DNA from: Planctomycetota bacterium
GTDB taxonomy: Bacteria > Planctomycetota > PUPC01 > DSUN01
Assembly (NCBI GenBank): GCA_035384565.1
Contig: DAOOIT010000016.1
Coordinates: 10,545 to 74,544, forward strand
Direction: 5' to 3'
Length of the DNA: 64,000 nucleotides
Position 1 is the first letter of the stretch. Each line of letters starts with the position of its first letter. Both the position numbers and the translations under genes were made by a program. Below, one piece after another: positions 14,374 through 37,138 of this stretch. The notes under the pieces are model-generated. The model ran no database searches, was not told where the DNA came from, and was given only the letters and a program-made list of their open reading frames with translations.

Positions 14374-16893
14374 ATGGGAGAAAGCAAGGAGCGCAGAATG
14401 CGGCAGCCTGTGGCGTGTCTCGGGCTCTGGCTCTCGACCCTCGCAGCGGGGATCGCGGGCGAACCAGGTGTGACGCCCATCCTCGACGACGGCAGCTACT
14501 ATCGCTACTTCATCGCCTGGCGAACGGAGTTCCTGCGAAAGAGCGACGGTTCCCTCGAGCCGATTGACGACAAGGGGAAAGGCCCCGCGCCCGTCGTGGC
14601 CTCGGACCTGCCGCCTGCGAACTGGGCGGCGCCGGATTTCGACGATTCGGCCTGGGCGCGGCGGCGCGGCCCGCTCAAGGCTGCCGCCACCGAGATGTCC
14701 CTCATTTGCCTTCGCTCGCGCTTCGAGGTGAGCGACCCCGCCAAAGTCGGCGACCTGTGCGTCTCCGCCGTTTTCACCGCCGGCGGCGTGCTGTACGTCA
14801 ATGGCGTCGAGGTGGCGCGCGTGGGCCTGCCTCAGGGCGCGACCCTGGATGCCGAGGCCGAAGACCTGCCCAAAGAGGCGTATCTCGACCCCGACGGCAA
14901 CCTCTACCGCATCGGTTGGGGCGACGAGAAGAAGTTCGAGGAGCGCCAGAAGGCGCGGCTGCGCGCCTTCGACGCCGTGAAGATTCCCCCTGCCGCGCTG
15001 CGCAAGGGCGTCAACGTCATCGCCCTCGAGATCCACCGCGCGCCCGCGAGCGAGCTGCTGCTCACGGCCAAGCCGCTGCGCTGGCGCGAGGAGGCCTGGC
15101 GCGGGCGCAGCTACTACTGGTGGAGCCGCCTCGGCCTCGAGGGCGTCAAGGTGACGGCGACAGGCGAGGGCGTCGTGCCCAACGTGGGCCGCCCGCCGAA
15201 GCTCCAGGTGTGGAACCACCCGCTGATCGAGCGCCCGATGATGAGCGATTGGGGCGACCCGTGCGAAGCCTTGCGTCCCGTGCGCTTCGCCGGGCAGCGC
15301 GGCGCCGTGCTGTCGCAGGCTCTCTGCGTCGGCTCCCCGACGGCCATCAAGGGACTCAAGGTGGCGGCGGAGGCGACGCTGCCTGGCACGGTCATCGAGG
15401 TGGCCTATCTCCAGGCCGACGGCGACGTGCGCGGCTCGTTCGGCAGCCTGGTCGCCGAACCTCCCGAGGGCAGTGCGGTGCAACCCGTATGGCTGCGTCT
15501 GCGTGTGCCGGCCGACGCCAAGCCCGGCGACTACACAGGGAAGGTGACCGTCGCCTGCGAGGGCGCCGCTCCCGTCATTGTGCCCGTCGAGATGACGGTC
15601 TATGGCTGGACAATGCCTGCGCCCCGGGACTTCACAGCGCACGTCGGCCTCATCCAGTCGCCCGACACGCTGGCGCTGCACTACGGCGTCGAAATGTGGT
15701 CGGAGGCGCACTGGAAGCTCATCGAGCGCTCGTTCCAGCTTCTCGGCGAAGTGGGCAACAAGGTGGTCTTCATCCCCGCCATCCGCCGCACGCACTTCGG
15801 CAACGAGCACGGCATGGTGCGTTGGGCGAAGGCCGACGGCGGCCACAAGCTCGACTTCTCACTCGTCGAGAAATACCTCGACCTGGCGCTCAAGCACCAA
15901 GGCAAGCCCCAGGTCGCGTGCCTCTACTGCTGGGAGCCGTACACGGGCGGCAAGTACCTCGACCACGCGGCGAAAGGCAGCGGCAAGGGCATGTGTTACA
16001 CCGTGCTCGACCCGAAGACGGGCCAGCTCGAAGAGGCCGAAGGGCCAAGATGGGGCGAGCCCGCCGTCCGCGAGTTCTGGAAGCCCGTGATGGACGGGTT
16101 CCGCGACCTGCTCGCCAGGCGCGGCATCGAGGGGGCGATGATGCTCGGACTCGCCGGCGACACCCGCCCCACGCGGGAGGCGGGCGAGGACCTCCTGGCC
16201 GTCGCTCCGAACGCCAAGTGGGTCGTCCACTCCCACGCCACGGCCGACAGCCTCTGGGGAATGCCCGTGGGCTACCTGTGCGACGTGTGGGGCGCCCCCC
16301 AGGCCCCCGACCCACCCAAACGGCTCTACGGCTGGCAGAACCCCTTCCTGCGGGCCACGTTCCCCCGGGCCGGCAGCAACACGGTCGGCTCGATGCATCC
16401 GGACGCACCGCTCGCCATGTGGTACCTGTCGCTTGAGGCCATGCAGGCAGCCGGCATCCACGGCTTCGGGCGCGTGGGGGCCGATTTCTGGCCCGTCGTG
16501 CCAGGCCCCGAGAACCGCAAGAAGACCATTCTCGGCCGATTCCCCGAGAGCGGCTGGGGGCAGCTCAGCATGACCGAGAGCGCCCCCTGGACCCTCGCCC
16601 CGGGCAAGGACGGCGCTTTGCCGACGCTTCGCTTCGAGATGCTTCGCATGGCGCAGCAGCAGACGGAGGCACGCATCTTCATCGAGAGGGCACTCGCCGA
16701 TGGCGCGAAGCGGGCCAAGCTGGGCGATGTCGCGGCACGGGTTGAGAGACTGCTGGATGACCGCACCCGCGCCCTCAACTACGCTCGTTCGCGCGGCTGG
16801 GACTACTTTGCCAGCTCGGGCTGGCAGGCCCGCGAGGAGGCCCTCTACGCCGCCGCGAGCGAAGTCGCCGCAAAGCTCGAGGGAGCACGCTAG
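14374..16893 (+). CDS. large secreted glycoside-hydrolase-like protein, paralog 1 of a three-member family (N-terminal galactose-binding/PA14-like beta-sandwich with a PDFDDSAW motif; C-terminal catalytic-like domain of uncertain family, possibly GH123/DUF4091-like)
   Basis: Signal peptide is present. Conserved blocks are shared with 30278-32905 and 34418-37138 (e.g. VYGWTMPAPRDF..SPDTLALHYGVEMWSEAHW..RTHFGNEHGMVRW; QQQTEARIFIERAL). Confidence 0.8.
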   Translation: MGESKERRMRQPVACLGLWLSTLAAGIAGEPGVTPILDDGSYYRYFIAWRTEFLRKSDGSLEPIDDKGKGPAPVVASDLPPANWAAPDFDDSAWARRRGPLKAAATEMSLICLRSRFEVSDPAKVGDLCVSAVFTAGGVLYVNGVEVARVGLPQGATLDAEAEDLPKEAYLDPDGNLYRIGWGDEKKFEERQKARLRAFDAVKIPPAALRKGVNVIALEIHRAPASELLLTAKPLRWREEAWRGRSYYWWSRLGLEGVKVTATGEGVVPNVGRPPKLQVWNHPLIERPMMSDWGDPCEALRPVRFAGQRGAVLSQALCVGSPTAIKGLKVAAEATLPGTVIEVAYLQADGDVRGSFGSLVAEPPEGSAVQPVWLRLRVPADAKPGDYTGKVTVACEGAAPVIVPVEMTVYGWTMPAPRDFTAHVGLIQSPDTLALHYGVEMWSEAHWKLIERSFQLLGEVGNKVVFIPAIRRTHFGNEHGMVRWAKADGGHKLDFSLVEKYLDLALKHQGKPQVACLYCWEPYTGGKYLDHAAKGSGKGMCYTVLDPKTGQLEEAEGPRWGEPAVREFWKPVMDGFRDLLARRGIEGAMMLGLAGDTRPTREAGEDLLAVAPNAKWVVHSHATADSLWGMPVGYLCDVWGAPQAPDPPKRLYGWQNPFLRATFPRAGSNTVGSMHPDAPLAMWYLSLEAMQAAGIHGFGRVGADFWPVVPGPENRKKTILGRFPESGWGQLSMTESAPWTLAPGKDGALPTLRFEMLRMAQQQTEARIFIERALADGAKRAKLGDVAARVERLLDDRTRALNYARSRGWDYFASSGWQAREEALYAAASEVAAKLEGAR

Positions 16894-17128
16894 TAACGTC
16901 TGCATGAGTGATGCGAAGATAGGAGGGGCGTCATTTCGGGCGTAGCGCAGTCGGGGAGTCTCTTTTCTCTGGCGGCACAGGAGAGATGCCCCGCCTTAGC
17001 TCGGCATGACCGCCCTTTGCACTATTCATGCAGAAGGCTGTAGGCTGCGTACCGGATCCAGTTGGCAGTTCGAGCGACATGGGTTATACTGTAATGGCGG
17101 CGCGGGAAGGTGCTGATATGAGACGGCC

Positions 17129-17689: not shown

Positions 17690-17709
17690 CCTGAAACAGC
17701 CGCGGCCGG

Positions 17710-18540: not shown

Positions 18541-18554
18541 CTTCCCGGCTCCTG

Positions 18555-19109: not shown

Positions 19110-19237
19110 ACCGCCATCTTACGCCTGCCCATGAGCGGCGTCAAGGGAGGCACCCAACTTGATCGGCTGCTGCCCCATGAGTATCATGGGGCGGTTCAAA
19201 CGTGTCCGGGCAGTATCCAGCACGCTGGAGGAAGCGC

Positions 19238-21541
19238 ATGGTTCGCGAGTTGACAGTGCTGCCCAGCTTCGACCCGAAGATCGTCGAGCTTGGCCAGATT
19301 CCTGTGTACCAATACAACCGCACGCTCGAGCAGGAACTTGCCGACGGGCGGCTGACCGAGCGCGATGCCAGGCAGTTCCTCGAGTTCATGATGACGATCC
19401 GCGCCTTCGAGGAGATGATCGTCGCGGCGCGCAACCAGGCCTATGAGCCGCTCAAGGGCATCGCGTTCGAGTATCGCGGCCCCACCCACCTCTCGATAGG
19501 CCAGGAGGCCACCAGCGTGGGCGGGTGCGCCGCCCTCCGCCTCACCGACTACATTACCAGCACCCACCGCGGGCACGGCGACGGCATCGCCAAGGGCTGC
19601 TTCGCCGTCTACCAGCGCGACCCCGCCACGCTGCGCAAGGTGCTGGGTCTCTCGGAGGCCGAGAAGCTCAGCGAGGAGGCCCTGCGCGAGAGGGCCATGG
19701 AGCACCACCTCTTCCGCACGGCTGCCGAGCTGTTCGGGCGCGACGCCGGCTACTGCCGGGGCCGCGGGGGCGGGATGCACATCGCCGATTTCAGCGTCGG
19801 CCACCTGGGCGCCAATGCCATCGTCGGCGGCAGCATCGGCATCGCGGCAGGGGCGGGAATGTCGGCACGCTATCGCCACAGCGGCCAGGTGTGCCTCTGC
19901 TTCGCGGGCGACGGCGCCTACTGCAACGGCATTTCCTTCGAAGCCCTCAACATCGCCTCGATGGGACAGTTCACCAACGAGCTGGCGTCGCACCCCTTTG
20001 GCGTCCCCACCATCTTCGCCATCGTCAACAACCAGTACGCCATGACCGGCCAGGTAGACGGCGAGGTAACAGGGGTGGACCACATGGCCCGCCGCGGCGC
20101 GGCCTTCCGGCCGGACAACCTGCACGCCGAGGTGATCAACGGCATGGACGTTCTGGCCGTCCTCGACGGCGTGCGCCGCGCCGCCGAACTCGCCCAGGAG
20201 GGCAAGGGCCCCGTCATCCGCGAGCTAGTGACCTATCGCTACCACGGCCACTCGCTGAGCGACCCTCGCATCGAGTACCGCTCGAAAGAGGAGGAGGCCG
20301 CCTGGCGGCAGGTGGACCCCATCGCCCGCCTCTCCGGCCAGCTTGTCGAAGCCAAGGTGTGCACCCAGGACGAGATCGAGGCGCTCCAGAGGAAGGTGGA
20401 TGAGCGGCAGGGCCGCGCCGCGCGCCGCGCGGCAGAGGCCCCTGAGCCGAAGGCCGAGGACGTGCTCGTATTCATGTACAGCAGCGGCACGTCGGACACG
20501 GTTCCCGCCGCGGCCAAGGAGCCCCGCCAACTCACCACGCCTGAGCCTCTCCCGCGCAAGGGCGGCAAACTGAGCTTCAAGGATGCCATCAAGGAGGCCC
20601 TCATCGAGGAGATGGTGCGCGACAACCGCGTGATCTTCTACGGCGAGGACGTGGCCGACTACGGCGGCGCCTTCAAAGTCACCAAGGGGCTGATTGACAT
20701 CTTCGGGCGTGATCGCGTGTTCAACACCTCCATCTCCGAGGCTGCGATCATCGGCACCGCGGTCGGTGCGGCCATGACGGGCCTCCGCCCCGTGGTGGAG
20801 CTGATGTATTCGGACTTCGAGTACCAGGCGGGCGACCAGATCTACAACCAGGCGGCCAAGTGGTCGTACATGTCGGGGGGCTCCCTGTCGGTGCCCCTCG
20901 TCATCCGCTCGTCGGTGGGCGCGGGCAAGGGCTATGGAGGCCAGCATTCGCAGAGCCTCGAATCGCATTCCACGCACACGCCCGGCATCAAGGTGGTCTT
21001 CCCCAGCACGCCGTACGACGCGAAGGGCCTGCTCAAGACGGCCATCCGCGATGACAATCCCGTGATGTTCTGCGAGAGCCAAGCCCTCTACAACGATCTG
21101 GGCGAGGTGCCGGCCGAGGACTACACAATCCCCTTCGGCCGGGCGGCCGTCCGCCGCGAGGGCTCCGACCTCACCATTGTGGTCTGGGGCAAGGTGGCGT
21201 CCGACGTCCTCGAGGCCGCCCGAGTCCTCGAAGCCGAGCACAGCATCGCTGTCGAGGTCATTGATCCCCGCACCCTCATCCCGTTCGACATCGAGACCGT
21301 GTTGCGCTCGGTGCGCAAGACCGGCCGAGCCATCGTGGCCTCACAGGCCTGCCGCACCGGCAGCTACACGGGCGAGATCGCCGCGCAGATTCAGGAGCTG
21401 GCCTTCGACTACCTCGACGCCCCGGTCGGCAGGATTGGCGCCCTGGATGGGGTGTCGCCGCAATCCTACGTCCTCGAGCAGGCTTTCCTGCCAAGCGTAG
21501 CCACCATCATCGAGACCGCGCGCAAACTGGTCGGGCGGTGA
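19238..21541 (+). CDS. thiamine-diphosphate-dependent 2-oxoacid dehydrogenase E1 component, fused alpha and beta subunits
   Basis: The N-terminal half carries the E1-alpha TPP-binding region (YRGHGDGIAKG; GGGMHIAD; GDGAYCNG). The C-terminal half is the E1-beta transketolase-like Pyr and C-terminal domains (FGEDVADYGGAFKVTKGL...). ATG at 19238 follows GGAGGA at 19227. Confidence 0.85.
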   Translation: MVRELTVLPSFDPKIVELGQIPVYQYNRTLEQELADGRLTERDARQFLEFMMTIRAFEEMIVAARNQAYEPLKGIAFEYRGPTHLSIGQEATSVGGCAALRLTDYITSTHRGHGDGIAKGCFAVYQRDPATLRKVLGLSEAEKLSEEALRERAMEHHLFRTAAELFGRDAGYCRGRGGGMHIADFSVGHLGANAIVGGSIGIAAGAGMSARYRHSGQVCLCFAGDGAYCNGISFEALNIASMGQFTNELASHPFGVPTIFAIVNNQYAMTGQVDGEVTGVDHMARRGAAFRPDNLHAEVINGMDVLAVLDGVRRAAELAQEGKGPVIRELVTYRYHGHSLSDPRIEYRSKEEEAAWRQVDPIARLSGQLVEAKVCTQDEIEALQRKVDERQGRAARRAAEAPEPKAEDVLVFMYSSGTSDTVPAAAKEPRQLTTPEPLPRKGGKLSFKDAIKEALIEEMVRDNRVIFYGEDVADYGGAFKVTKGLIDIFGRDRVFNTSISEAAIIGTAVGAAMTGLRPVVELMYSDFEYQAGDQIYNQAAKWSYMSGGSLSVPLVIRSSVGAGKGYGGQHSQSLESHSTHTPGIKVVFPSTPYDAKGLLKTAIRDDNPVMFCESQALYNDLGEVPAEDYTIPFGRAAVRREGSDLTIVVWGKVASDVLEAARVLEAEHSIAVEVIDPRTLIPFDIETVLRSVRKTGRAIVASQACRTGSYTGEIAAQIQELAFDYLDAPVGRIGALDGVSPQSYVLEQAFLPSVATIIETARKLVGR

Positions 21542-21563
21542 GCAGCGGAAAGGGACTTCCCGG

Positions 21564-22004: not shown

Positions 22005-22007
22005 CCG

Positions 22008-24503: not shown

Positions 24504-24659
24504 GCCACTTCGCTCCAGGCTCCTGGGTTACCCTCGCCGTGCGCCGTATCGTATTCCGTCCTGCGGCCCTGTCAAGGCTTGATTTGCCTCCCCCCTTCGG
24601 CTAAGCTGGCGCTCAGTCGCCGGCACACCCATAGATTTCCCTGTGGAAGGAGACCCCTG

Positions 24660-25394: not shown

Positions 25395-25499
25395 GCAGAG
25401 ATTGGCGGTTGATCTCCTGCTCCTCTTCCGGGATAATCCGAGGTGGCGTTGTGGCCCGAGGGGCACGCTTCGGCCATCCCTGAACCTAGGAGGAATCGC

Positions 25500-26759: not shown

Positions 26760-26800
26760 GCGAGGCGACGCCCCGTTATCGCTGCCCGCCGACAGCCACG

Positions 26801-26836
26801 AACCCACCCGAAGGTTCCAACGCCTTCGGGTGGGTT
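26801..26836 (+). terminator. GC-rich stem-loop (AACCCACCCGAAGG-TTCCAACG-CCTTCGGGTGGGTT) 42 nt downstream of the 25500-26759 gene
   Basis: A 14-bp perfect stem seen in the sequence. It belongs to a hairpin family sharing the loop GGTTCCAAC (see 55056-55157, 12170-12189). Confidence 0.4.
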
Positions 26837-26900
26837 TCGCTTTGGCCTCTGAGCGGTCACACGGCTGGTGCCGTGCCGCCATGACGCGGGCGGTGCCACG

Positions 26901-28187
26901 CTACCTGCCAACGCAGAACACGCTCTTCTGGCCGACAAGGAACAGGCACCCGCCCGCCACAGCCGGCGAAGGATGGCTTCCGTCGCCCAGGTCGTTGGTG
27001 GCGAGAACTCTGAACTCCGGGCCGGCCTGGACGACGTAGCTCTTGCCCGCGTTGGCGAAGAAAAGGCGGCCCTCCGGGTCGGCGATGGGGCTCGCCCAGC
27101 CGGAGGAAATGCCCTCCAGCCGCTGTGTGTAGACCTCCTTGCCCGTCGCCGCCTCCCAGCACCGCAGCGTGCCCTGGTCGTAGAGCCGGTAGACGTGGCC
27201 TCCGACGATGATCGGCGAACTGAGCCCGCCGCCCGAAGCGACCTTCCACTTGACGTGCGTCGCCGTCACGTCGCCCTCGCCTGTGGGGTCCACGGCAGCG
27301 CCTGGGCCGCCGCGCCCGTTGTCGAAGTAGACGATCCCCGCGCCATAGGCCGGGGACGATGTCTCCCCTGCCCCAGCGCACCACCAGAGGGTCTTGCCCG
27401 TGGCGGGGTCGAGGCTCCGCAAGGCGTCGGGCAGGCGCCCGAGACCGCCGGCGAGGACGAGCATCTGCGGCTTGCCCTTCACCTCGATGAGCGTGGGCGT
27501 GCTGTGGCCGAAGCCCATCGTGGGCTGCTTCGCCTCCCACTTCACCTCGCCCGTCGCCTTGTCGTAGGCCGACACCCGCGAGTTCTGCGGCACGGTCTCA
27601 TAGGCGAAGATCAGCGTGTCCTCGTAGAGAATCGGGCTGCTGCCCACCGTGACGTCGAAGTCACCCGGCACGAGTTCCCGGCGCCACACGATCTTGCCTT
27701 CGTAGTCGAGGGCGGCGAGCACCTTGGATCCGAAGGCGGCATAGACGAGCTTGCCGTCGGTGCAAGGCGTAGGCGCGGCATAGCCGCCGCCGGGGCCGCT
27801 GCGAAAGTCGTTCCGCAGCCAGGGGCCGGGCGGCACCTGCGTGTCCCAGAGCAGCTTGCCGTCGCTCGTGTCGTAGCACAGCACGTGATGCTCGGGCATC
27901 ATCTTGCCGTCCGGCTTGCCCTCCCCCGGCCACCGCACGGTGGAGATGAACAGGCGATTGCCCCAGACAATGGGGCTGGCATGCCCCTGGCCGACGAGCG
28001 GCGACTTCCAGCGCACATTCTCATTCTTCGGCCCGCCCCAGGTGAGGGGCAGGCTGGCTTCCTTCGTATAGCCCAGCCCCGTCGGCCCGCGGAACTGCGG
28101 CCAGTTCTCCTCCCGTGCCCAGGCGAGCCTGGCGGCCACAGCGGCCAGGCACAGCGTTGCTGCGGCTGTTAGTCGGTGGCATGCCAC
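26901..28187 (-). CDS. secreted PQQ-like beta-propeller repeat protein (second copy, divergent from 25500-26759)
   Basis: GTG start (VACHRLTAAATLCLAAVAARLAWA signal peptide) preceded by GGAGGA. ENWPQFRGPTGLGY is the typical PQQ-propeller start. The upstream 1.4 kb of the 902-aa ORF is low-complexity S/P/A/T/R read-through and was rejected. Confidence 0.75.
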   Translation of the reverse strand: MACHRLTAAATLCLAAVAARLAWAREENWPQFRGPTGLGYTKEASLPLTWGGPKNENVRWKSPLVGQGHASPIVWGNRLFISTVRWPGEGKPDGKMMPEHHVLCYDTSDGKLLWDTQVPPGPWLRNDFRSGPGGGYAAPTPCTDGKLVYAAFGSKVLAALDYEGKIVWRRELVPGDFDVTVGSSPILYEDTLIFAYETVPQNSRVSAYDKATGEVKWEAKQPTMGFGHSTPTLIEVKGKPQMLVLAGGLGRLPDALRSLDPATGKTLWWCAGAGETSSPAYGAGIVYFDNGRGGPGAAVDPTGEGDVTATHVKWKVASGGGLSSPIIVGGHVYRLYDQGTLRCWEAATGKEVYTQRLEGISSGWASPIADPEGRLFFANAGKSYVVQAGPEFRVLATNDLGDGSHPSPAVAGGCLFLVGQKSVFCVGR

Positions 28188-28215
28188 GTTGGGTCCTCCT
28201 TCGCAGTTGCTCGGA

Positions 28216-29622
28216 TCAACCTCTGGCAAGCGCCAGGTCCAGCGCCAGCAGTTCGCGGGTGAGTTCGTCGTGGGCGTTGGCGTAGGGGAGGCTGGCGCAG
28301 ATGAAGGGGACCATGTCGGCGGCGTAGCCGCCGCGGGCCGCGGCAGTACGGTCGGGCGCATAGCCCACGCTGTCGTTGACGAAACTGCACACCAGCGTGG
28401 GCTTGCCCTGCGCGGCGGCCACCACGTCGTTCTTGATGGCCTGGAAGGTTTCGAAGCCGGAGCCGAGAATGGCGAGGGACCCGATGCGCATCCCCGCGAC
28501 CTCGGTGGGGTCAGCCAATGGCTGGTTGGCCGCCGCCTTGGCGAGCAGTCGCCGCAGGGCCGTGACGTAGACCATGGCGATCCGGACCTCGTGCGGGGCG
28601 TCCGTGGCGTCGAGCTTGTGGAGCTTGGGCTCGCATTCGGCGAGGAGTTCGCGCAGCTTCTCAACGCCCCACGGCTTGCGGCTGAATGTGACTTTGCGGC
28701 GGGCCGACGAAATGCGATCAACGCCGAGGGGCTTCGCCGCCGCGATGCCGTTGCGAACCGCGTTGGCGTAGCGGCCGGCGATGATGTCGAGAGCAAGAAG
28801 CGAGTCGGTCTCGGGCTTGTGGCAGACGCAGGTGTTGACATCGCCCTGGGCGCCCTGAAGGAAGAGACCGACGGCGCCGGGGTGCTCGCGCTCGATGAGA
28901 TTGGTGGCCACGCCGGCGTAGTCGCCGTGGATGTAGCGCGTGGCCTCGCAGCACACGACGGGGTGGCAGCCGAAGTAGCTGACGAAGCCGAGGATGCCGT
29001 CTCCTTGTGGGCGGGGCGTCTCTGCCCCGCGGGGCGCGGAGGCCCCGCCCACAGCGCCGAGGCCCCGCCCACGCCTGGTGGCGACGAGCACGTGGCAGGT
29101 GGTGTCGGTGAGTTCGGGCTTGGCGGGGCGCCAGTCGTCGCGGAGCACCACGTCGAGGGGCTGAGCGTCCTTGTCGTATTCGCGGTTGCAGCCGATGCCG
29201 TGGCAGGGCACTTCGGCGTGGGCGAGTTCGGCCTCCTCGAGGCGTTCGAGGGCATGAAGGCAGGCGGTGGCAATTCGTGACGGAAGGGTCTCGACGTAGG
29301 GCGGGTCGGGCTCTCCCCAGCCGATGTACGGGCCGGTGCAGGGGCCGCTGTGAGTGTGGGACGAACAGAGGAGCACGGCGTCGGGGGCAAGGCCGGCACG
29401 TTCGCCGAGGATCGTGCGCACGCGCTCGGTGATGGGCAGTGCCGTGCCGATGAGGTCGAGGGCAACAAGGACTTGGCGGAGGCCGCCGAGTTCCAGCGCC
29501 ATGGCCCGCGCCCACAAGTGGTCGCGGACCTCGATGCTCTTGCGGCAGCGGAACGGCCCGAAGCCGCACAGTTCCACGCCCACCCGCGGCGTGATGTCGT
29601 TCTTCGCAAAGCCGATGCGCAT
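28216..29622 (-). CDS. neutral/alkaline ceramidase N-terminal-domain-like hydrolase
   Basis: Start MRIGFAKNDITP..ELCGFG and the overall architecture match the neutral ceramidase N-terminal family. It contains a G/A-rich low-complexity insertion (RGRGLGAVGGASAPRGAETPRPQGDG). Confidence 0.6.
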   Translation of the reverse strand: MRIGFAKNDITPRVGVELCGFGPFRCRKSIEVRDHLWARAMALELGGLRQVLVALDLIGTALPITERVRTILGERAGLAPDAVLLCSSHTHSGPCTGPYIGWGEPDPPYVETLPSRIATACLHALERLEEAELAHAEVPCHGIGCNREYDKDAQPLDVVLRDDWRPAKPELTDTTCHVLVATRRGRGLGAVGGASAPRGAETPRPQGDGILGFVSYFGCHPVVCCEATRYIHGDYAGVATNLIEREHPGAVGLFLQGAQGDVNTCVCHKPETDSLLALDIIAGRYANAVRNGIAAAKPLGVDRISSARRKVTFSRKPWGVEKLRELLAECEPKLHKLDATDAPHEVRIAMVYVTALRRLLAKAAANQPLADPTEVAGMRIGSLAILGSGFETFQAIKNDVVAAAQGKPTLVCSFVNDSVGYAPDRTAAARGGYAADMVPFICASLPYANAHDELTRELLALDLALARG

Positions 29623-29798
29623 CGCGGGGCCTCCTGGGGTTCGCTGACAGAACCAACACGACTGGGAACATACCTGCCCTGTGAGCAGGTGTCAACTGGG
29701 ACTGATGCGCCTCATAGGGCCGACGTGGTGCATGGAATGGACGCGATGGAAATCGTGGACGCGCGCAAGGAGCGAGTCCACAGTGTCCATCGGGTGCA

Positions 29799-30266
29799 TT
29801 ATGCCCAGTCGAGGGAGCGCGCGATGACCATAGCTCGCCTTGGGCTTCTGGTCGTGCCGCGGCACGTTCCCTTGTCACTGGTTGGGCACGAGCTTGACGA
29901 CGAAGGCTTGGCCAGAAAACCGTCGTTCATGCCCCTCAGCTCGCGTTGAACCGCCGCGTCGGTCGTCGGAAAGTCGGGCGATGCAGTGACGCCGGAGAGG
30001 AGGAAGGAGCCATCGGCCAAGAGGAGCGGGCGGTGCTCGGCGCGGTTGCCGCTCGGAGGCCCGAGGCGCTGGCCCGTCAAGCCAAGATCGTCCACCAGAA
30101 CGCCCGGCACCTGCGCCTGCACTGCCTCAAGGGCATCGGGCACGTGAGCGGTGCCGCCCCAGCCTAGGACCTTCTGGTAGCGCGTAGAGGAGTCCACGGT
30201 CACGGTAGCTGCCGTCGCGACGAGGCACCCACCGCACAGAGCAAGCCAGCTCAAGGCAGGCCGCAT
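29799..30266 (-). CDS. truncated paralog of the SBBP beta-propeller gene 32918-34414 (signal peptide plus one repeat; possible remnant or pseudogene)
   Basis: Residues ..RPLLLADGSFLLSGVTASPDFPTTDAAVQRELRGMNDGFLAK are near-identical to the 33-34 kb protein. About 130 bp (29.93-30.06 kb) are almost identical to 33.36-33.49 kb. The original C-terminal codons (..FVVKLVPNQ*) persist out of frame. ATG at 30266 has a GGAG Shine-Dalgarno and is coupled to the stop of the upstream gene (30278). Confidence 0.45.
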   Translation of the reverse strand: MRPALSWLALCGGCLVATAATVTVDSSTRYQKVLGWGGTAHVPDALEAVQAQVPGVLVDDLGLTGQRLGPPSGNRAEHRPLLLADGSFLLSGVTASPDFPTTDAAVQRELRGMNDGFLAKPSSSSSCPTSDKGTCRGTTRSPRRAMVIARSLDWA

Positions 30267-30277
30267 GGCTTCTCCTC

Positions 30278-32905
30278 TCAAGGCCTTCCGCTGGCGGTCG
30301 CAGCGGCCTGATAGAGTCGGCGCGAACGGGCCTGCCAGCCGAGATGGTACTGCTCCATGCTGTAGATGACCGAGTTCCCGACGAAGAAGGTCGTCTCGCT
30401 GAAGTGGTCGGCGAGCACCTGCTTCAGGCGCGTGTTGGCCGCCTTGGGGAATTGCAGACGGTCCAGTGCTTGCTCGATGGCGATGCGGGCCTCGGCCTCC
30501 TGGATGCCCTCGAGGAGCGCTTCGAACCGGGCGCTGGATTCGGCCCCCGCCTCGCCCGGCCAGAGGAGGAAGAGGACTGGAACACCCGTGATCCAGCGTG
30601 GCGGCTCCATCGCCTCATAGTGGATGCCGGCCCATTCGTCGGCGCCGACCCACGCGAAGCCGTTCCGCCCCATCGCCAGCGCGCGGTCCACCATCGCCCG
30701 GTAGGCAAAGGGGTGCGAGGTGGTGTGCAAGGCGAACGACGTGCCGCCGACGCGCGGGCTGGCCAGATGGATGCAGGGGCTGCGCCAACCCTGGTCGTCG
30801 CGGAAGTTCCGCCAGCCGCCCTGGTAGCGGATGTCGGTGATCAGCTTGTAGAAGCGGTCGTTGAGGCAGTACTTTGCGTTGTACATGATCTCGTGGCCAT
30901 AGGCGGTCCAGAAGACCTCTGGCGCAGCGGCGGCAAGAATGTCCTTGAGCTGTGGGTCAGCCTCAGCCTCGAGGGGTGCGCCCCAATACATGCTCTTGTC
31001 GAGCCCGCGGGCCTTCATGTGGGCGACGAGCGAGCGGGCGAATGCCTCCCACATCGGGCGGTCCACAGGCGCGAGAGCGGCCTCACCCGTCGCCTCGTCG
31101 AGCACGCACACCTGCGCGGGCGCATCAGGGTTGATCTGGCTTTTCATCCCCTGCATCACGACGAACTGAATGACCCGAGGCGGCCCGCAGTGCTTGACGG
31201 CCAGGTCCAGATAGCGGTCGAGAATGGCGTAGTCGAACGCAATCTGGCCGCCCTTGCGCTTCCAGCGGACCATCGAGTCCGAGCGGTTGCCGAACTCGGT
31301 GCGCGCGATGACGGGCACGTTGAGCCAGGCGTTGCCGATGCGCGCGAGCTGGCGGAAGCTAGCATCAAGGAGCCTGAAGTGTTCGTCGGACCAGAGCTTC
31401 ACCCTATATTGCTTCGCCACTCCGTAGGGGTTCTGCATGCAGGCGACGAAGGTCTTGAAGTCCCTGGGGTCGGGCAGTCGCCACGGCAGGACCTCGGCCT
31501 CGACAGGCAGACTCGCCGGCTCCATCCCATTCGCCGTCACCTCGACAGCGCCGCGGTAGGTGCCCGGCACCGCATCCGCTGGCACGCGCAGCGAGAGCCA
31601 GATGGGGCGCGCTGCATTGGCAGGGAGCACGACGGAAGCATCGGGAATGAGGTGGTCGAAGAGCCAGGGGCCGTCGTCCTGCATCTTCGCGTAGGCCGCG
31701 AGCTGCGCCGCATCGGGAAACGAGGCGCCGAGCCCCCGCTCATCGCCCAGTTTCCTCAAGCTCCAGGCGGACACCGGAAAAGGGGCCATGTGCGTGGCAC
31801 GGATGGCGGAGGCGGGGAGCTTGGCGCCGCCCTCGATGGCGAGGTCGGTCACCCGCGCCCGAAGATCGGTGAGCGGGGCCGCGCTGCGGATCACCACTTG
31901 AGCGGAGTACGTGCCGTTTCGCGCGGCCACAAAACGCACGGTGCCCGGCGTCTCACCGGGCGGCAGGAAGTCGCTGGAGAGCGTCCGGTGGTGCATGTCC
32001 TCGGCCCACACCTGGACATGCCCAGGGCGATCAGAGGCGGGTCTTGCCTCATGTGGGGCAGCGCGAAGCTCGAGGCTGATGAGGCGGCCGTGCGGCCACG
32101 GGCGCTGTGGCCCGCCCCAGTTTGGCTGGATCGGGTTCATGAGGACCACGGGATGGAAGCAGCTTGCGCGAACCTCGACGGCGAGGACGTTGAGACCTCT
32201 GCGCAGTGCAACCGCGGGGACAGCGATCGGCCCGAGCGAGCGCTGAGACAGTTCGGCGCCCTTCGGGCCGTAGGCCTCGGGCGGGTAGTCGTCGCCCGGG
32301 GTGTCGGGCGCCAGTTCGCCCTTGGGCAGATGGCCGCGGGCGACCTCGTAGCCGTTGACGAACACGCGGACCCCGCCGCTGTAGGCCAACCGAAGGGTAA
32401 GGGCCTCAGGCTCCGTGAGGGCGAATCGCGTGCGGTAGCAGGCCACGAGGAGCCGCAGGTCCACGCTCTCGTCGTACTGGCCGAGGTTGATCATCGTGAG
32501 TTCGGGCGCCGGGCCGCCCTGGAAGGGCCGACGGTCGCGGACCCACCCGCCATCATCGAAGTCGGCCGCCATCCAGTCCGCAGGCGGCGGAGGCGTGGGA
32601 ACGGGGTCGTTCGAGCGGAACCCGCCGCCGCCCATGCTCAACACCGCGTGGTCGCGCCAGTCCACCACGGCAGGGTCTATGCCCTTGGCCTTGAGCGCCC
32701 TTTCGGTGTCGGCCTTGAGCCTGGCAGCGAGGCGCGGCTCGATCGGCTTGCCTGCCTGAGCCTTCAGGGGGACCGGCGAGATGCGGTTGAGGCCGAACTG
32801 GTAGTACCGCCGCCAGTAGCACGTCTCGTCGAGCACAAGCAGGGAGCTCTCGCCGCCGAACGCTTGAGCAAGGAGCAGACCACAGCCGAGAACTAGCCGC
32901 CGCAC
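30278..32905 (-). CDS. large secreted glycoside-hydrolase-like protein, paralog 2 (same family as 14374-16893)
   Basis: Signal peptide MRRLVLGCGLLLAQAFG. N-terminal ADFDDGGW motif. Conserved blocks LPWRLPDPRDFKTFV..NPYGVAKQYRVKLWSDEHF..RTEFGNRSDSMVRW and QEAEARIAIEQAL. Confidence 0.8.
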   Translation of the reverse strand: MRRLVLGCGLLLAQAFGGESSLLVLDETCYWRRYYQFGLNRISPVPLKAQAGKPIEPRLAARLKADTERALKAKGIDPAVVDWRDHAVLSMGGGGFRSNDPVPTPPPPADWMAADFDDGGWVRDRRPFQGGPAPELTMINLGQYDESVDLRLLVACYRTRFALTEPEALTLRLAYSGGVRVFVNGYEVARGHLPKGELAPDTPGDDYPPEAYGPKGAELSQRSLGPIAVPAVALRRGLNVLAVEVRASCFHPVVLMNPIQPNWGGPQRPWPHGRLISLELRAAPHEARPASDRPGHVQVWAEDMHHRTLSSDFLPPGETPGTVRFVAARNGTYSAQVVIRSAAPLTDLRARVTDLAIEGGAKLPASAIRATHMAPFPVSAWSLRKLGDERGLGASFPDAAQLAAYAKMQDDGPWLFDHLIPDASVVLPANAARPIWLSLRVPADAVPGTYRGAVEVTANGMEPASLPVEAEVLPWRLPDPRDFKTFVACMQNPYGVAKQYRVKLWSDEHFRLLDASFRQLARIGNAWLNVPVIARTEFGNRSDSMVRWKRKGGQIAFDYAILDRYLDLAVKHCGPPRVIQFVVMQGMKSQINPDAPAQVCVLDEATGEAALAPVDRPMWEAFARSLVAHMKARGLDKSMYWGAPLEAEADPQLKDILAAAAPEVFWTAYGHEIMYNAKYCLNDRFYKLITDIRYQGGWRNFRDDQGWRSPCIHLASPRVGGTSFALHTTSHPFAYRAMVDRALAMGRNGFAWVGADEWAGIHYEAMEPPRWITGVPVLFLLWPGEAGAESSARFEALLEGIQEAEARIAIEQALDRLQFPKAANTRLKQVLADHFSETTFFVGNSVIYSMEQYHLGWQARSRRLYQAAATASGRP

Positions 32906-32917
32906 ATGGTTCTCCTG

Positions 32918-34414
32918 TCATTGGCTTGGCACGAGCTTGACGATGAAGGCGTCGCCACTGCCGGCGTGGGTCTTCTGGACGGCATTCGGGGTCACGGGGA
33001 AGTCGGGCGACGAAGTGTTGCCGACGAGGTAGACCTCGCCCTTGGAGCCAAGGGCAAGGCTGCGAATCAGGTCGCCCCCGCTCCCGCCGAAGTAGGTGGC
33101 GTAAAGCAGTCTTGAGCCATCGGGGCTCACAATGGCCAGCACCCCGTCGCCCTCCCCTGCTTCCTCGGGGCCGCGGAAGGTGGGCTGCACAGCATCCGGG
33201 GTCACGGGGAAGTCGCGCGAGGTGGTCGTTCCAACGACGTAGAGGTTGCCGTCGGCATCCTGTGTCGGCATGAGGAAGAACTCACCCCCAGTTCCTCCGA
33301 GGAGGGTGGAGAAGATGAAGCGTCGTCCGTCGGGCGAGAGCTTGGCCAGGAAGCCGTCGTTCCTACCCCTCAGCTCGCGTTGAACCGCCGCGTTCGTCGT
33401 CGGGAAGTCGGGCGATGCGGTGACGCCGGAGAGGAGGAAGGAGCCATCGGCCAAGAGGAGCGGGCAGTGCTCGGCGAACTCGTTACCGCGGCCTCCGAGA
33501 TAGGTGGCGTGGAGGATGCGGGAGGCGTCGGGCGAGAGCTTGGCCAGGTAGCAGTCGAACTCCCCGCCGAGCTTGGGCTGGGGCGCGCCGGCCGTCACGG
33601 GGAAGTCATCGGACCTCGTGTGGCCCGCGACGTAAAGGTTCCCAGCGGCGTCGAGGCGGATGCCCATGATGGCGTCGTCCTCGCCGCTGCCGCCGAGGAG
33701 GGTGGCGAAGACGAGGCCGGAGCCGTCGGGTTTGAGCCTCACGATGGCGGAGTCGCGCGGCCCGCTCCGTTTCGGCTGCACGACGCCCCGGGTCGTGGGG
33801 AAATCGGGCGAGTTGCTGGTGCCGACGACGTAGACCGTGTCGTCCGGCCCGACAGCCAGGCCGCCGCGTGGGAAGTCGTCGCCCGAGCCGCCCACATAGG
33901 TGCACCAGAGGAGCTTCTTGAGGTCGGGCGAGAGCTTGGCCACGAGCATGTCGGACGGCCCGCCGCCGAACGTGGGCTGGAAGCAGCCCGAGGTGGTCGG
34001 CGCATCGGGCGAGCGGGTGGCGCTCGTGATGACCACGTTGCCCTTCGAGTCGATGCCCATGCCGTAGACGTTGCGCTCCTGCTTCGAGCCGCCGAAGTAA
34101 GTGGCGGCGAGCACCTTCGAGCCGTCGGGGCTGAGGCGGAGAAGGAAGCAGTCGCCGCCATAGATGCCGCCGTGGCCGAGGGCAGGGTCGTCGCCCGCGT
34201 AGGCCGGCTGCACAACGCCCTCCGTGGTCGGAAGGCCGGGTGAGCACACCTGTGCACCCACGAGCACGGAGCCGTCGGGACACGGGATTACCTCGCGCGC
34301 CTGGTCCCAACCGCTGCCGCCGAAGTAGGTGGCGTACTCCAGTTTGAACCTGGGCTGGGCGGCGGAGGCCGCCCCACACGAGAGGCACAGGAAGAGCACG
34401 AGTGTTCGCGACAT
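32918..34414 (-). CDS. secreted SBBP (beta-propeller repeat) protein
   Basis: Signal peptide MSRTLVLFLCLSCGAASA. Repeated YFGGSG..D.....DG.VYV.G.T.S.DFP.T.GA.Q units are typical of the SBBP repeat. Confidence 0.75.
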   Translation of the reverse strand: MSRTLVLFLCLSCGAASAAQPRFKLEYATYFGGSGWDQAREVIPCPDGSVLVGAQVCSPGLPTTEGVVQPAYAGDDPALGHGGIYGGDCFLLRLSPDGSKVLAATYFGGSKQERNVYGMGIDSKGNVVITSATRSPDAPTTSGCFQPTFGGGPSDMLVAKLSPDLKKLLWCTYVGGSGDDFPRGGLAVGPDDTVYVVGTSNSPDFPTTRGVVQPKRSGPRDSAIVRLKPDGSGLVFATLLGGSGEDDAIMGIRLDAAGNLYVAGHTRSDDFPVTAGAPQPKLGGEFDCYLAKLSPDASRILHATYLGGRGNEFAEHCPLLLADGSFLLSGVTASPDFPTTNAAVQRELRGRNDGFLAKLSPDGRRFIFSTLLGGTGGEFFLMPTQDADGNLYVVGTTTSRDFPVTPDAVQPTFRGPEEAGEGDGVLAIVSPDGSRLLYATYFGGSGGDLIRSLALGSKGEVYLVGNTSSPDFPVTPNAVQKTHAGSGDAFIVKLVPSQ

Positions 34415-34417
34415 GGC

Positions 34418-37138
34418 TCACTCCTTGTGTGAAGCGAGGGCTGTGGCCACCTCGCCGGCCGCGTCGAAGAGGCGTCGGCTGCGCTCTTGCCAGCCGAAGG
34501 GCGCGATGTCCTGGCAGCGCAGGCGCCAGAGGCGCATCAGGTTGGTTCGCACGTCGAGGAGTTGCTGACAGCTACGAGCGAGGTCGGCGGGCAGGGGTTG
34601 GTGCTTGTTCAACAAGGCTTTCTCGATGAAGACTCGGGCCTCGGCCTCCTGGTTGCCCTCGCGGGCGCACTCGAGGCGAATGGTCGTCACAGGGCCATCG
34701 GGGCCCGGGGCGAAGAGGTCGGTGCAGCTCCGCCCGAGGCCGGTCTCGTCGGCGTGCGAATGGAAGTAACGGTTGAAGAGCGTGCCGCCGCTGCCGCCCA
34801 CAATGCCCCAGTCAGGCTTGCCGTCGCCGAGGAGTTGCGCGCCGATGTGCCAGTAGTCGCCGCCGACGCGGCCGTTGCCGGCCCGGCCATAGACCAGCGT
34901 GCTCTCCATCCACATACGGAATGACCAGGGCGGCGGGAAGCCGATCAGCAGCAGGGCCGAGCCGCTGCGGTTGAAGTTGAGGATAACCTGGTTCGGGTCG
35001 TACTGCCAGCCATAGAGGCGCCGCACGGCGGGGTCGGGGATGTCGCCGCCGTAGACCACCGAGTTCCAGCGGACGGGCACGGTGGCCTTGGTCGCCGGGT
35101 CGTAGACGTAGGCTCGCTGGGGCTGGTGCGACTCGGCGAGCCAGCCGGCCTCGGGCAGAATGCGGCGGAACATGGCCGCCGTGGGCGGGTCAGGCCCCAT
35201 GTCGCCAGCGATCCCGAGTACGACCCGGTCGCCCAGCCCTTTGGCCTTCAGCCGTTCGTGAAGCGCGACGAGCAGGGGGCGCCAGGCGGCCTCGCACTCG
35301 GGCGTGCCGTACTGGGGGAGCTTGACGCTCTCGCGCCTGCCCGTGGCGGGGTCAATGACTGTGACGCGGGCGCCATAGAAGGAGGCGTAATCGCGCGGCC
35401 CCTTCCACGTGCGGTTCGACGCCTCGTAGCCCCAGGCGTTCAGCGAGACGAATCGCAAGCGGCCGTGGGTCTTGAGCGCCGCGTCGAGATAGCGGTCGAA
35501 CCGGCTGAAGTCGTAGCGATACGAGCCGTCGGGCTGCTTGAGCCAGGGCACGAGCGATTCGGGGTTGCCCATTTGGGATTCGGCGAGCAAGGGGATGAGG
35601 AGGCCAATGTTGCCCATCTCGCCCATCAGCGCCAGGCTCTTCTCGATGAGCCGCCAATGCGCGTCGGACCAGGGCTCGACCTTGTAGTATCGAGCCAGGG
35701 TGTCGGGCGACTGATAGATGTGGAGGAGCGTCGCATAGTCCTTCACGTCGGGAAGGGTCCAGTCGCACACATGTAGTTCGAGGGTGCCGGCGAAGGCCCG
35801 GCCTTGCGCTTCGATGGCCAGTTCGCCGGTGTAGCGGCCGGCAGGAGCGCCCTTAGGCACCCTGGCCGATACCCAGATGGCCACGGCCGTGGCGTTGGCT
35901 GGCGGGGCGTCGAGAAGCATGTCGAAACGGGTGCCGCCCTCGGCGCCGGCATCGCGCTTCCAACGGGGCGGCGTGACGGGCATGCCCATCTGGCGCAGCG
36001 CGTCGGGCCAGAAGGGGTTGGGCACGCCGTAGCGCACGCGGATCGCCTCGGCGGGGATGAGGCCGCTGCCGCTTACCTGCTTGAGAGCCGCGGCCCTGGC
36101 CGAGAGGCCCCTCAGCGGCTCGTCGCTGGCCACGATGGCCTGGCCGGCGAAGGTGCCGTTGCGGGCGCCCACGATGCGCACCTTGCCTCGGCTCTCGTTG
36201 GCCGCCGACAGCGCGGGCTCGAAGAGCGTGCGCGTCGTGTCCACGGTCCACACCTGGATGCCGCCCGGTCCGGTCCTTGTGGCTCCATCCTGAGCGTCCA
36301 GGCGGAGTTCGAGGCGGCCCAGGCCCACCGTGGCGGCGATGGCGTCGGGCTGCCGCATGCACTGGGGCGGGTAGGTGCCGCGGTGCATCTCGATGGCGAG
36401 CACGTTCGCGCCGTTGCGCAGGGGGCCGAGCGGGATCGCGACGGGACCGAATGCCCGCTCGCGCAGCGCCCACTGCGGGCACCGGAGGTCGTTGGTGTCG
36501 AGGGGTCGGGGGCGGCCCTTCTCCAGGCTGTCGCGGTAGAAGAAGGCTTCGGGCGGGTATGCCTCAGCGGGGGTGCCGGGGCGCAGATTGCCCTCTGGCA
36601 GGTGCGCGCGGGCGACTTCGACGCCGTTGAGGTAGGCCACGAAGCCGCCGCGGCAGCTCAGCGCGAGCGTGAGCCTGCGCACCTTCGTGCGGTCGGCCAC
36701 GGCGAAGCGGCCGCGCAGGCACACCAGGCCCACGGCGGGCAGAAACGGGTCCGTGCCGCGGAGGCGCGTGCTGATTCCCTCCTGGCTCATCTCGCCGATG
36801 AGCTTGAGGTCTTTCACGCCGTGCTCGAACTCCTGGCCGGGGGCGAGGAGCCAGTCGTCATCGTCGAAGTCGGGTGCGGCCCAGTTCGATGGCGGCGCCT
36901 CGGGGAACATCGCGGCCAGGCTGTCGGGTCTGGGTGCCTGGGCACCCTCGTCCGCGAACACAGGTGGGAACGTGGTGTAGTGCTTGCGCCAGTAGTGGCG
37001 CTGGGTAAGGAGGGCTTCGCCGCCGCTCAGCGGCTCGGCTCCAGAGACGGGAGGGCCGCCGAGCGCCGACACCAGAAGAGCCATGAGCACTACGAGGGGG
37101 GGGCGCACAAGGAGCGAAGGCCCCCCAGACATGGTCAT
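34418..37138 (-). CDS. large secreted glycoside-hydrolase-like protein, paralog 3
   Basis: PDFDDDDW motif. Blocks HVCDWTLPDVKDY..SPDTLARYYKVEPWSDAHW and QEAEARVFIEKAL. The likely start is MTMSGGPSLLVRPPLVVLMALLVSALG at 37138; the ORF is open to 37396 but the upstream codons are R-rich low complexity. Confidence 0.78.
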   Translation of the reverse strand: MTMSGGPSLLVRPPLVVLMALLVSALGGPPVSGAEPLSGGEALLTQRHYWRKHYTTFPPVFADEGAQAPRPDSLAAMFPEAPPSNWAAPDFDDDDWLLAPGQEFEHGVKDLKLIGEMSQEGISTRLRGTDPFLPAVGLVCLRGRFAVADRTKVRRLTLALSCRGGFVAYLNGVEVARAHLPEGNLRPGTPAEAYPPEAFFYRDSLEKGRPRPLDTNDLRCPQWALRERAFGPVAIPLGPLRNGANVLAIEMHRGTYPPQCMRQPDAIAATVGLGRLELRLDAQDGATRTGPGGIQVWTVDTTRTLFEPALSAANESRGKVRIVGARNGTFAGQAIVASDEPLRGLSARAAALKQVSGSGLIPAEAIRVRYGVPNPFWPDALRQMGMPVTPPRWKRDAGAEGGTRFDMLLDAPPANATAVAIWVSARVPKGAPAGRYTGELAIEAQGRAFAGTLELHVCDWTLPDVKDYATLLHIYQSPDTLARYYKVEPWSDAHWRLIEKSLALMGEMGNIGLLIPLLAESQMGNPESLVPWLKQPDGSYRYDFSRFDRYLDAALKTHGRLRFVSLNAWGYEASNRTWKGPRDYASFYGARVTVIDPATGRRESVKLPQYGTPECEAAWRPLLVALHERLKAKGLGDRVVLGIAGDMGPDPPTAAMFRRILPEAGWLAESHQPQRAYVYDPATKATVPVRWNSVVYGGDIPDPAVRRLYGWQYDPNQVILNFNRSGSALLLIGFPPPWSFRMWMESTLVYGRAGNGRVGGDYWHIGAQLLGDGKPDWGIVGGSGGTLFNRYFHSHADETGLGRSCTDLFAPGPDGPVTTIRLECAREGNQEAEARVFIEKALLNKHQPLPADLARSCQQLLDVRTNLMRLWRLRCQDIAPFGWQERSRRLFDAAGEVATALASHKE

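Follow-up and report, generated by a model that had tools for sequence, protein, structure and literature searches.

A 64,000-nucleotide stretch of the genome of an uncultured Planctomycetota bacterium (GenBank assembly GCA_035384565.1, contig DAOOIT010000016.1, positions 10,545 to 74,544; hereafter the window) carries three genes, A, B and C, for large proteins that stand on the scaffold of the glycoside hydrolase family 123 (GH123) β-N-acetylgalactosaminidases and from which the acid/base glutamate of these enzymes has disappeared. Placement in GH123 leaves their function unsettled, because this defining residue is missing from the whole clade. Based on profile alignments and a structural model, we tentatively favor reading A, B and C as proteins that still process glycans, by means of a re-wired catalytic center, and whose substrate is probably other than a simple terminal β-linked N-acetylgalactosamine. 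The coordinates of the genes are listed in Table 1.

A, B and C aligned with one another over nearly their full lengths in BLASTP searches, with 28% identity between A and B (E-value 1e-74), 31% between A and C (8e-95) and 31% between B and C (2e-81). The original prediction, made from the sequence by eye, had described three paralogs of more than 800 amino acids and had allowed that identity might fall below significance on formal alignment. The alignments proved highly significant (E 1e-74 to 8e-95); the similarity is far above chance and, on these alignments, the three are true paralogs. The sequence blocks quoted for them were also found, namely APDFDDSAW (A), AADFDDGGW (B) and APDFDDDDW (C) near the N-terminus, SPDTLA..Y..VE.WS.AHW, FGN and MVRW or LVPW in the central portion, and Q..EAR(I/V)(F/A)IE.AL near the C-terminus. 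The N-termini are hydrophobic and compatible with signal peptides, and all three proteins are predicted to be secreted. B is 100% identical to PLE19_08080 (P0264), annotated as 'hypothetical protein' [Planctomycetota bacterium], which is the record of B's own sequence. NCBIfam held no model matching A, B or C.

In Pfam searches, the three proteins matched PF13320 (GH123_cat, formerly DUF4091) with E-values of 1e-16 (A), 3e-22 (B) and 2.5e-22 (C). The bit scores (61.4, 79.8 and 80.1) were all above the gathering threshold of 23.1, and the matches covered only positions 2 to ~163-181 of the 324 in the profile. PF22680 (GH123 N-terminal domain 2) was likewise matched by all three, with E 4e-12 for B. 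A sequence search of the PDB returned BvGH123 (E 2e-20) and CpNga123. With a 48-sequence family profile (A1), the match to BvGH123 improved to E 1e-38, and NgaDssm, NgaCa, NgaP2 and a Niabella enzyme were added. Employing the A1 alignment as input, we generated an AlphaFold2 model of A (predicted local distance difference test, pLDDT, 91.9; predicted template-modeling score, pTM, 0.92). In a Foldseek search against the PDB, this model retrieved BvGH123 first (E 4e-27, template-modeling (TM) score 0.71), together with every solved GH123-like β-N-acetylgalactosaminidase (E 1e-14 to 4e-27). GH2 enzymes ranked behind the GH123-like ones, with whole-chain TM scores of only 0.15-0.2. As modeled, A consists of a signal-like N-terminus, a GH2-N-like jelly roll (~30-270), a GH123_N β-sandwich (~275-415), a (β/α)8 barrel (~420-751) and a C-terminal helical bundle (752-837). 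A guess in the original prediction that the proteins might be GH123/DUF4091-like was right by Pfam hidden Markov model (HMM), PDB sequence search and fold. Judged by these searches and the model, the family derives from the GH123/DUF4091 β-N-acetylgalactosaminidase scaffold.

The isolated N-terminal domain (~240 residues) was modeled by AlphaFold2 with a pLDDT of 94, and its top 50 Foldseek matches in the PDB were all GH2 proteins (E 5e-5 to 4e-4; TMq 0.28-0.43). Against Pfam, the isolated N-domains gave only noise at E <= 10 and no match to PF02837 (GH2_N). The sole link at the sequence level was one between the family profile and the GH78 rhamnosidase 3w5m (E 9e-9). This domain had been likened both to the sugar-binding jelly roll of GH2 enzymes and to PA14; the first likeness held at the level of fold, whereas the second was dropped, with no PA14 match in Pfam and no PA14 among the top folds.

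Catalysis by GH123 enzymes and by the related Groups 1-4 depends on consecutive Asp and Glu residues (the DE motif), of which Asp orients the 2-acetamido group and Glu serves as the acid/base (Sumida 2024, PMC11087588). The motif is found in 94% of 734 PF13320 sequences. Activity falls when either residue is mutated and is almost lost when the Asp is changed; true enzymes keep reduced activity as E-to-Q/D mutants, whereas D-to-E mutation leaves almost none (PMC11087588). In A (residue numbers of family positions are those of A), the stabilizer Asp survives (D596), and a Thr (T597) stands where GH123 enzymes have the acid/base Glu. In B, a Glu (E646) occupies the position of the stabilizer Asp, and a clade-conserved Glu (E648) follows at +2. 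C has D646-M647-G648-P649, with a Glu (E669) two residues before the invariant H671. The family consensus 'lGlagDarPtk' aligned to 'HIAMDERPMKD' of BvGH123 and 'LADEP' of NgaDssm in the profile alignment, and hhalign agreed; the register of D-x-R-P against D-E-R-P was exact and was reproduced by three methods.

Motif counts were taken from an HMM alignment of ~365 full-length homologs. The stabilizer Asp (596) is present in 93% of them, whereas position 597 is hypervariable and holds D or E in 0 of ~365. A DE dipeptide lies within ~8 residues of this site in 2 of 364 sequences, out of register in both. The B clade is split roughly evenly at position 596, with Glu in 59 and Asp in 55 sequences. 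As these counts indicate, the acid/base Glu is absent from the entire family, and none of A, B and C is a canonical GH123 enzyme. Because all three proteins and the whole family are without the catalytic glutamate, their chemistry probably differs from that of GH123.

Other residues of the GH123 signature were compared in NgaLy numbering, which was transferred to the family only via BvGH123; the profile of the latter was shallow (the homologs listed were all >=80% identical), and a 3-sequence profile aligned to the solved enzymes only in the DE region and the C-terminal block. The structural residues (NgaLy D95, W115, G427, Y466 and R478) are mostly kept, with W373, G697 and R753 at 86-99%. 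A has Gly at position 357, where B, C and most of the family keep Asp (D357), and the site of Y466 holds Y, F or D depending on the clade. For the universal Trp (NgaLy W431, Gly+4), hhalign with G697 on the universal Gly put the aliphatic residue 701 (V/I/L/M) in its place with a posterior of ~0.6-0.7, the alternative register being G702/W706. The region of the universal Tyr (NgaLy Y392) aligned to P657/F658 of A at just 0.1-0.2 confidence; no conserved Tyr was found nearby, and W654 is 93% conserved. On the alignments available, the structural signature is retained, the catalytic one is changed and the substrate-contacting one probably so.

A polar pocket is nevertheless preserved. H446 and H621 are 100% conserved across the family, N477, D494, Y501, R665 and D704 are 96-100% conserved, and Q428, S429, P430, W654, E688, R700, W706, R753 and E755 are 81-98% conserved. 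According to DSSP assignment on the model of A, most conserved residues come right after barrel strands: Q428-S429-P430 after 423-427, N477 in the loop (β2) after 464-468, D596 after 589-593, H621 after 615-620, R665 after 659-662, and D704 and W706 after 697-702. In the model, they sit on the canonical catalytic face of the TIM barrel. With this invariant polar ring at the C-terminal strand ends, the pocket is under strong selection. D704 aligned to an Asn in BvGH123 (posterior ~0.6-0.7).

Three further positions hold carboxylates in a clade-specific manner. Position 521 is acidic in 136 of 152 sequences of the A clade (E521 in A), position 598 is Glu in 94 of 120 sequences of the B clade, 6-7 of them being gapped there (E648 in B), and position 619 is acidic in 17 of 26 sequences of the C clade (E669 in C). 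Of 365 sequences, 291 have an acidic residue at just one of these positions, 10 at two of them and 64 at none. This near-exclusive pattern fits a relocated proton donor and is confounded by phylogeny.

The reading of A, B and C as re-wired enzymes is favored because residues of catalytic type are conserved almost absolutely across deep paralogs, and because the neighbors and fusions of the family (see below) are enzyme-like. As proton donor, the invariant His (H621 in A) may act together with a carboxylate, which would sit at a different neighboring strand end in each paralog (E521, E648 and E669, respectively). Alternatively, the invariant D704, on the strand read as β7, might act as an enzyme nucleophile. 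A precedent for a His-based N-acetylhexosaminidase is offered by the NagZ-type GH3 N-acetylglucosaminidases, in which an Asp-His dyad is the acid/base.

Several points weigh against such a center. H621, D704, E521, E648 and E669 were placed relative to D596 from strand order alone, and the second half of the barrel aligns to BvGH123 with no more than moderate posteriors (~0.5-0.7 for G697-W706 and 0.1-0.2 for the Tyr392 region). The choice of carboxylate follows the clades and could be phylogenetic inertia rather than compensation, and the 64 sequences mentioned above lack an acidic residue at all three sites. Pseudoenzymes, too, have typically lost a catalytic Glu. Finally, B has Glu for the stabilizer Asp, a D-to-E exchange of the kind that nearly abolishes the activity of true β-N-acetylgalactosaminidases (PMC11087588).

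A rather unlikely but possible alternative is that the proteins are catalytically dead pseudo-glycosidases that bind glycans, with the GH123 pocket kept as a ligand site. Periplasmic copies would then bind glycan, relatives fused to sigma factors would relay binding across the membrane, and in the window a pair of extracytoplasmic function (ECF) sigma factor and FecR-like anti-sigma factor, downstream of which B and C are located, would signal. Chi-lectins, which are GH18 pseudoenzymes, show how loss of the catalytic Glu turns a glycosidase fold into a lectin. The family-wide loss of the Glu at a position now hypervariable agrees with this alternative, as does the Glu for stabilizer Asp in B.

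Further evidence for it came from fusion proteins among the relatives. At least nine family members, in distinct 50%-identity clusters (P0061, P0116, P0156, P0161, P0208, P0209, P0214, P0235 and P0246), are fused to an ECF sigma factor. In these proteins of 1087-1163 amino acids, the complete sigma factor (r2 + r4) spans residues ~20-180, and after it come a ~50-residue linker, one predicted transmembrane helix and a full ectodomain, a layout checked by Pfam for eight of them and by sequence inspection for P0235. The ectodomain begins at 'S(Y/F)WR', the same motif that starts the mature window proteins, and keeps the invariant pocket residues of the family. None of the three alternative carboxylates is present in 4 of the 9 fusions, compared with 64 of 365 sequences overall. 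A, B and C themselves are unfused, and sigma, anti-sigma and GH123-like genes are separate but adjacent in the window. By their domain order, the fusions are a Rosetta-stone type link from the family to ECF signaling, and they match the gene array of the window. Under the favored reading too, sigma fusions and the sigma/FecR-headed array tie the family to the sensing of envelope glycans, besides or instead of their breakdown.

The same data contain arguments against dead enzymes. Two His residues at 100% and several Asp, Asn and Arg residues at 96-100% across paralogs that are <30% identical are more typical of catalytic machinery than of a pocket for binding divergent ligands, and most stand-alone members retain one nearby carboxylate. 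Fusions or neighbors of NPCBM, BACON and lyase-like types, along with sugar-responsive regulators, match enzyme loci. Moreover, enzymes too can be sensor ectodomains.

It is improbable that A, B and C are ordinary GH123 exo-β-N-acetylgalactosaminidases working by substrate-assisted catalysis, with the loss of Glu being an alignment artefact or the residue dispensable. The significant GH123_cat matches, the GH123 folds at the top of the structural search, the stabilizer Asp in 93% of the family and the partial activity of E-to-Q/D mutants would all suit such enzymes. However, the D-x-R-P/D-E-R-P register is exact, and a nearby DE dipeptide is confined to the two out-of-register cases; the universal Trp aligns to an aliphatic residue (at moderate confidence), and the Pfam matches stop about halfway through the catalytic profile. 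A ceramidase-like gene near B recalls glycosphingolipids, on which NgaP and CpNga123 act. We rejected this neighbor as a glycosphingolipid link: its match is weak, and it recurs in 1 of 78 loci only.

The family is large and old. A HMMER scan with C yielded 883 clusters (50% identity representatives) at E <= 1e-30, and among species-representative genomes the family is present in numerous lineages, such as Planctomycetota (Phycisphaerae, Brocadiia, Planctomycetia), Kiritimatiellae, Victivallales and 'Zipacnadia'. Homologs in other assemblies are 41-90% identical to A, 42-100% identical to B (the 100% being B's own record and the next ~80%) and at best ~58-59% identical to C, whereas the pairwise identities among A, B and C are only 29-32% in the tree set. 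A phylogeny had been suggested for dating the duplications; we constructed a neighbor-joining tree of 87 family sequences, rooted on BvGH123 and with capped distances. A and B fell into separate old clades with 95-96% bootstrap values, and C into a looser group (bootstrap 20). We also retrieved 78 genome loci with one strict pattern from 31 assemblies, one metagenome-assembled genome supplying 15 of them. A second copy lies within 6 kb in 12 of 77 loci, and two loci have at least three copies. Adjacent or tandem copies were seen in L019, L028 and 10 other loci and for P0268/P0314 (FJ291_20170/20175). Because closer homologs occur elsewhere and the family is multi-copy across the Planctomycetes-Verrucomicrobia-Chlamydiae (PVC) bacteria, these comparisons indicate that A, B and C descend from old duplications in a habitually multi-copy PVC family.

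A contig of a relative is syntenic with the window and has orthologs of A (90% identical) and B (79% identical), but neither C nor the 831-amino-acid NHL protein; it has a DUF4838 gene after the B ortholog. Copy content varies between close relatives. A recent lineage-specific expansion with substrate diversification in this organism, as the original prediction had it, is very improbable: three copies lie in 23 kb, with one gene between B and C, and C is missing from the relative, but each copy is closer to homologs in other genomes than to its paralogs, the clades of A and B are well supported, and many genomes of Planctomycetota, Kiritimatiellae and Victivallales are multi-copy.

Table 1. 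Features of the window discussed in the text (window coordinates)
Feature	Coordinates	Strand	Length (aa)	Remarks
Transketolase-like gene	7482-9437	-		among glycan genes; syntenic in relative
Protein adjoining A	12712-14334	-	540	divergent from A; no Pfam match
Paralog A	14374-16893	+	839	
Motif of A	16159-16170	+		D596-T597-R598-P599; counterpart of BvGH123 D361-E362-R-P
Fused alpha/beta E1 dehydrogenase	19202-21541	+	779	E1_dh + Transket_pyr + Transketolase_C; syntenic in relative
NHL/SGL/SBBP propeller	22008-24503	-	831	homologs recur beside family genes
PQQ_2 propeller	25443-26759	+	438	PF13360, E 2e-28
PQQ_2 propeller	26901-28187	-	428	PF13360, E 5e-23; ortholog in related contig
Ceramidase-like	28216-29622	-	468	neutral/alkaline ceramidase N-terminus, E 1e-8 over 95 residues
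Paralog B	30278-32905	-	875	layout as in A
Motif of B	30959-30970	-		E646-A647-E648-A649; [D/E]-x-E arrangement
SBBP beta-propeller	32918-34414	-	498	between C and B; PF06739, E 5e-17
Paralog C	34418-37138	-	906	
DUF5060 + bacterial TSP3 repeat protein	37264-39525	-	753	directly upstream of C
Polyferredoxin-like, Fer4/Fer4_5	39522-41270	-		array member
TPR + FMN_bind	41437-42960	-		array member
FecR-like anti-sigma	42957-45221	-		PF04773; start approximate
ECF sigma factor	45218-45778	-		Sigma70_r2 + r4; head of array
GFO/IDH/MocA oxidoreductase	46148-47434	+		just beyond array
HEAT-repeat protein	47587-50310	+	907	homologs near family genes in 3 loci
Heparinase II/III-like (weak)	50336-53005	+	889	just beyond array

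The GC content of the window is 64-73%, and spurious long open reading frames (ORFs) are frequent on both strands. Real genes were picked by their translations and by third-position GC content (0.83-0.88 for the frames assigned to A, B and C). An ORF at 30344-32896 on the strand opposite to B was discarded as a high-GC artefact. A 902-codon open frame at 26901-29609 (minus strand) turned out to be two real genes in different frames, the second PQQ_2 gene and the ceramidase-like gene of Table 1, and illustrates how long ORFs mislead in high-GC sequence. The reading frame of C stays open to 37396, the extra stretch being Arg-rich and overlapping the upstream gene. The 831-amino-acid ORF at 22008-24503, similar in length to the paralogs, was considered as a fourth copy; it encodes an NHL propeller and is no paralog, and tblastn detected no fourth copy in the window.

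B and C belong to a co-directional array (45778-30278, minus strand) with the order sigma, FecR, FMN_bind, Fer4, DUF5060, C, SBBP and B. Its junctions are mostly 4-nt overlaps or gaps of 3-125 nt; the SBBP gene is separated from C and B by 3 nt and 12 nt, respectively. The widest gap (~165 nt, from FMN_bind to polyferredoxin) is probably occupied by a small ORF, which has been called in the relative. The FecR-like ORF extends to 45542 and overlaps the sigma gene, and its ortholog has 717 amino acids and a 4-nt overlap with the sigma gene. In a scan for terminators and promoters, terminator-like sites in the array were no commoner than by chance, and promoter matches were at chance level except for a 10/12 sigma-70-like site at 29695-29667 (minus strand), upstream of the ceramidase-like gene. 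We infer that this tightly packed, sigma-headed array is co-transcribed. The relative has the same order minus C, with the SBBP ortholog directly upstream of the B ortholog. By domain content, we take the FMN_bind and Fer4_5/Fer4 pair to resemble a split redox module of the NosR/NirI type.

A sits 13 kb off, among GH5, GH4, PEP-CTERM, HEAT, CYTH and E1-dehydrogenase genes, an arrangement that is syntenic in the relative. The divergent gene at 12712-14334 encodes a protein with a sub-threshold match to an NADase-type discoid glycan-binding domain (NCBIfam, E 4e-5), and it is conserved (82% identity) beside the A ortholog in L049 and in L001. The glycan-related genes of the window are those for GH5, GH4, DUF5060, ThuA and heparinase-like proteins. 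By these annotations, the genomic context is glycan-related. Beyond the array, the genes at 46148-53005 (plus strand) add a flavor of polysaccharide utilization to the region.

The ceramidase-like gene is kept beside the cluster in the relative, and its product is far shorter than typical ceramidases. In the relative, a 636-amino-acid DUF4838 gene lies between it and the B ortholog on the opposite strand (L005, 12649-14559), where the window has only ~650 bp (29623-30277); the gene was therefore gained or lost between close relatives. Where the 831-amino-acid NHL gene is absent from the relative, the ThuA gene follows directly.

The proposed interleaving of the copies with SBBP and PQQ propellers was found as described (the four propeller genes of Table 1). 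By clustering ORFs from the 78 loci, we identified recurrent neighbors of the family. A homolog of the 831-amino-acid NHL protein is encoded within 6 kb of a family gene at 12 loci out of 78, spread over 10 of the 31 assemblies, and the best of them matches with E 1e-147 and 37% identity over 889 amino acids. GntR regulators with a sugar domain of the periplasmic-binding-protein type were found in 11 loci, and PcRGLX-like (lyase-type) proteins also in 11; PQQ_2, FG-GAP and HEAT proteins recurred as well. Because propeller homologs recur beside family genes, propeller interleaving is a recurrent feature. Distant members of the B clade are fused to NPCBM and BACON domains. No gene-for-gene conservation was found in the context of the distant homologs L006 and L007, and PDB searches with the NHL and SBBP neighbors returned generic repeats or nothing.

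The GH123 enzymes BvGH123 (5L7R/5L7V), CpNga123 (5FQE) and NgaP have the same sandwich, barrel and helical C-domain as the family (TM 0.62-0.73). Sequence blocks are common to both through β1-β4 (Q-S/N-P, S..H, N, W...D and the Asp of DE), and the structural residues G697 and R753 are also kept. Unlike these enzymes, the family is without the acid/base Glu, has a probably aliphatic residue at the Trp position, has D704 for the Asn of BvGH123, and carries an extra N-terminal GH2-N-like domain of ~240 amino acids (~850-900 versus ~580 amino acids in total); identity is just 22%, and Pfam covers half of the catalytic profile. Representatives of Groups 1-4 of Sumida (NgaCa, NgaAt, NgaDssm and NgaLy/NgaP2; 8K2F-8K2N) were all retrieved by fold (E 1e-14 to 3e-23) and have the C-terminal 'PG.DG...R.E..EG.Q' block in common with the family. 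All four groups keep the DE motif and nine universal residues (PMC11087588), whereas the family is without E328 and probably without W431. The Glu-less clade is not among the groups of that study, which covered 734 Pfam sequences and leaves Planctomycetes unmentioned in its main text (Sumida 2024, PMC11087588).

GH2 enzymes (LacZ and β-glucuronidases) resemble the family in the order of jelly roll, Ig-like sandwich and TIM barrel, in the F-D-D-x-x-W motif and in the fold of the N-domain. They differ from it in the barrel, which in the family is GH123-like and not of clan GH-A; there is also no GH2_N match in Pfam, and whole-chain TM scores are as low as stated above. NagZ and chi-lectins differ from A, B and C in fold and family, and their likeness is by analogy only. 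ECF sigma factors with C-terminal extensions or fused sensors have been described (PMC7826278), and in some family members, likewise, an ECF sigma factor and an extracytoplasmic domain share one polypeptide. We did not find a GH123/DUF4091-like ectodomain mentioned in the main text of Casas-Pastor et al. 2021 (PMC7826278), and literature searches on DUF6067 and on GH-fused ECF sigma factors returned nothing relevant. The fold, the Pfam family and the general theme are known; the literature searched describes neither the Glu-less clade and its added domain nor the clade-specific carboxylates or the sigma fusions.

A more far-reaching proposal is conceivable, although we consider it doubtful in its entirety. 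A PVC-wide clade of at least 883 clusters would have arisen from GH123, lost the DE-motif Glu and built a new active site, with the proton-donating carboxylate shifted to different neighboring strand ends from subclade to subclade (A, B and C exemplifying one subclade apiece) and with an invariant His and an invariant Asp, on the strand read as β7, newly added. It would constitute an undescribed GH family with a different mechanism and substrate, and its ectodomain would repeatedly have been joined to an ECF sigma factor, giving a transmembrane sensor of glycans in a single polypeptide.

Annotation pipelines label such proteins 'glycoside hydrolase domain-containing', 'DUF4091', 'DUF6067' or 'GH123', and enzyme censuses of Planctomycetota or PVC bacteria would count the family members as β-N-acetylgalactosaminidases. 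For hundreds of sequence clusters, such a label is probably mistaken. If the proteins are active, they would define a new variant of catalysis on the GH123 scaffold and perhaps a GH family of their own, and would show how a catalytic residue can change place between paralogs in nature. If they are inactive, they would form a large family of glycan receptors derived from glycosidases, some of them fused to ECF sigma factors, and polysaccharide sensing in poorly understood bacteria would become experimentally tractable.

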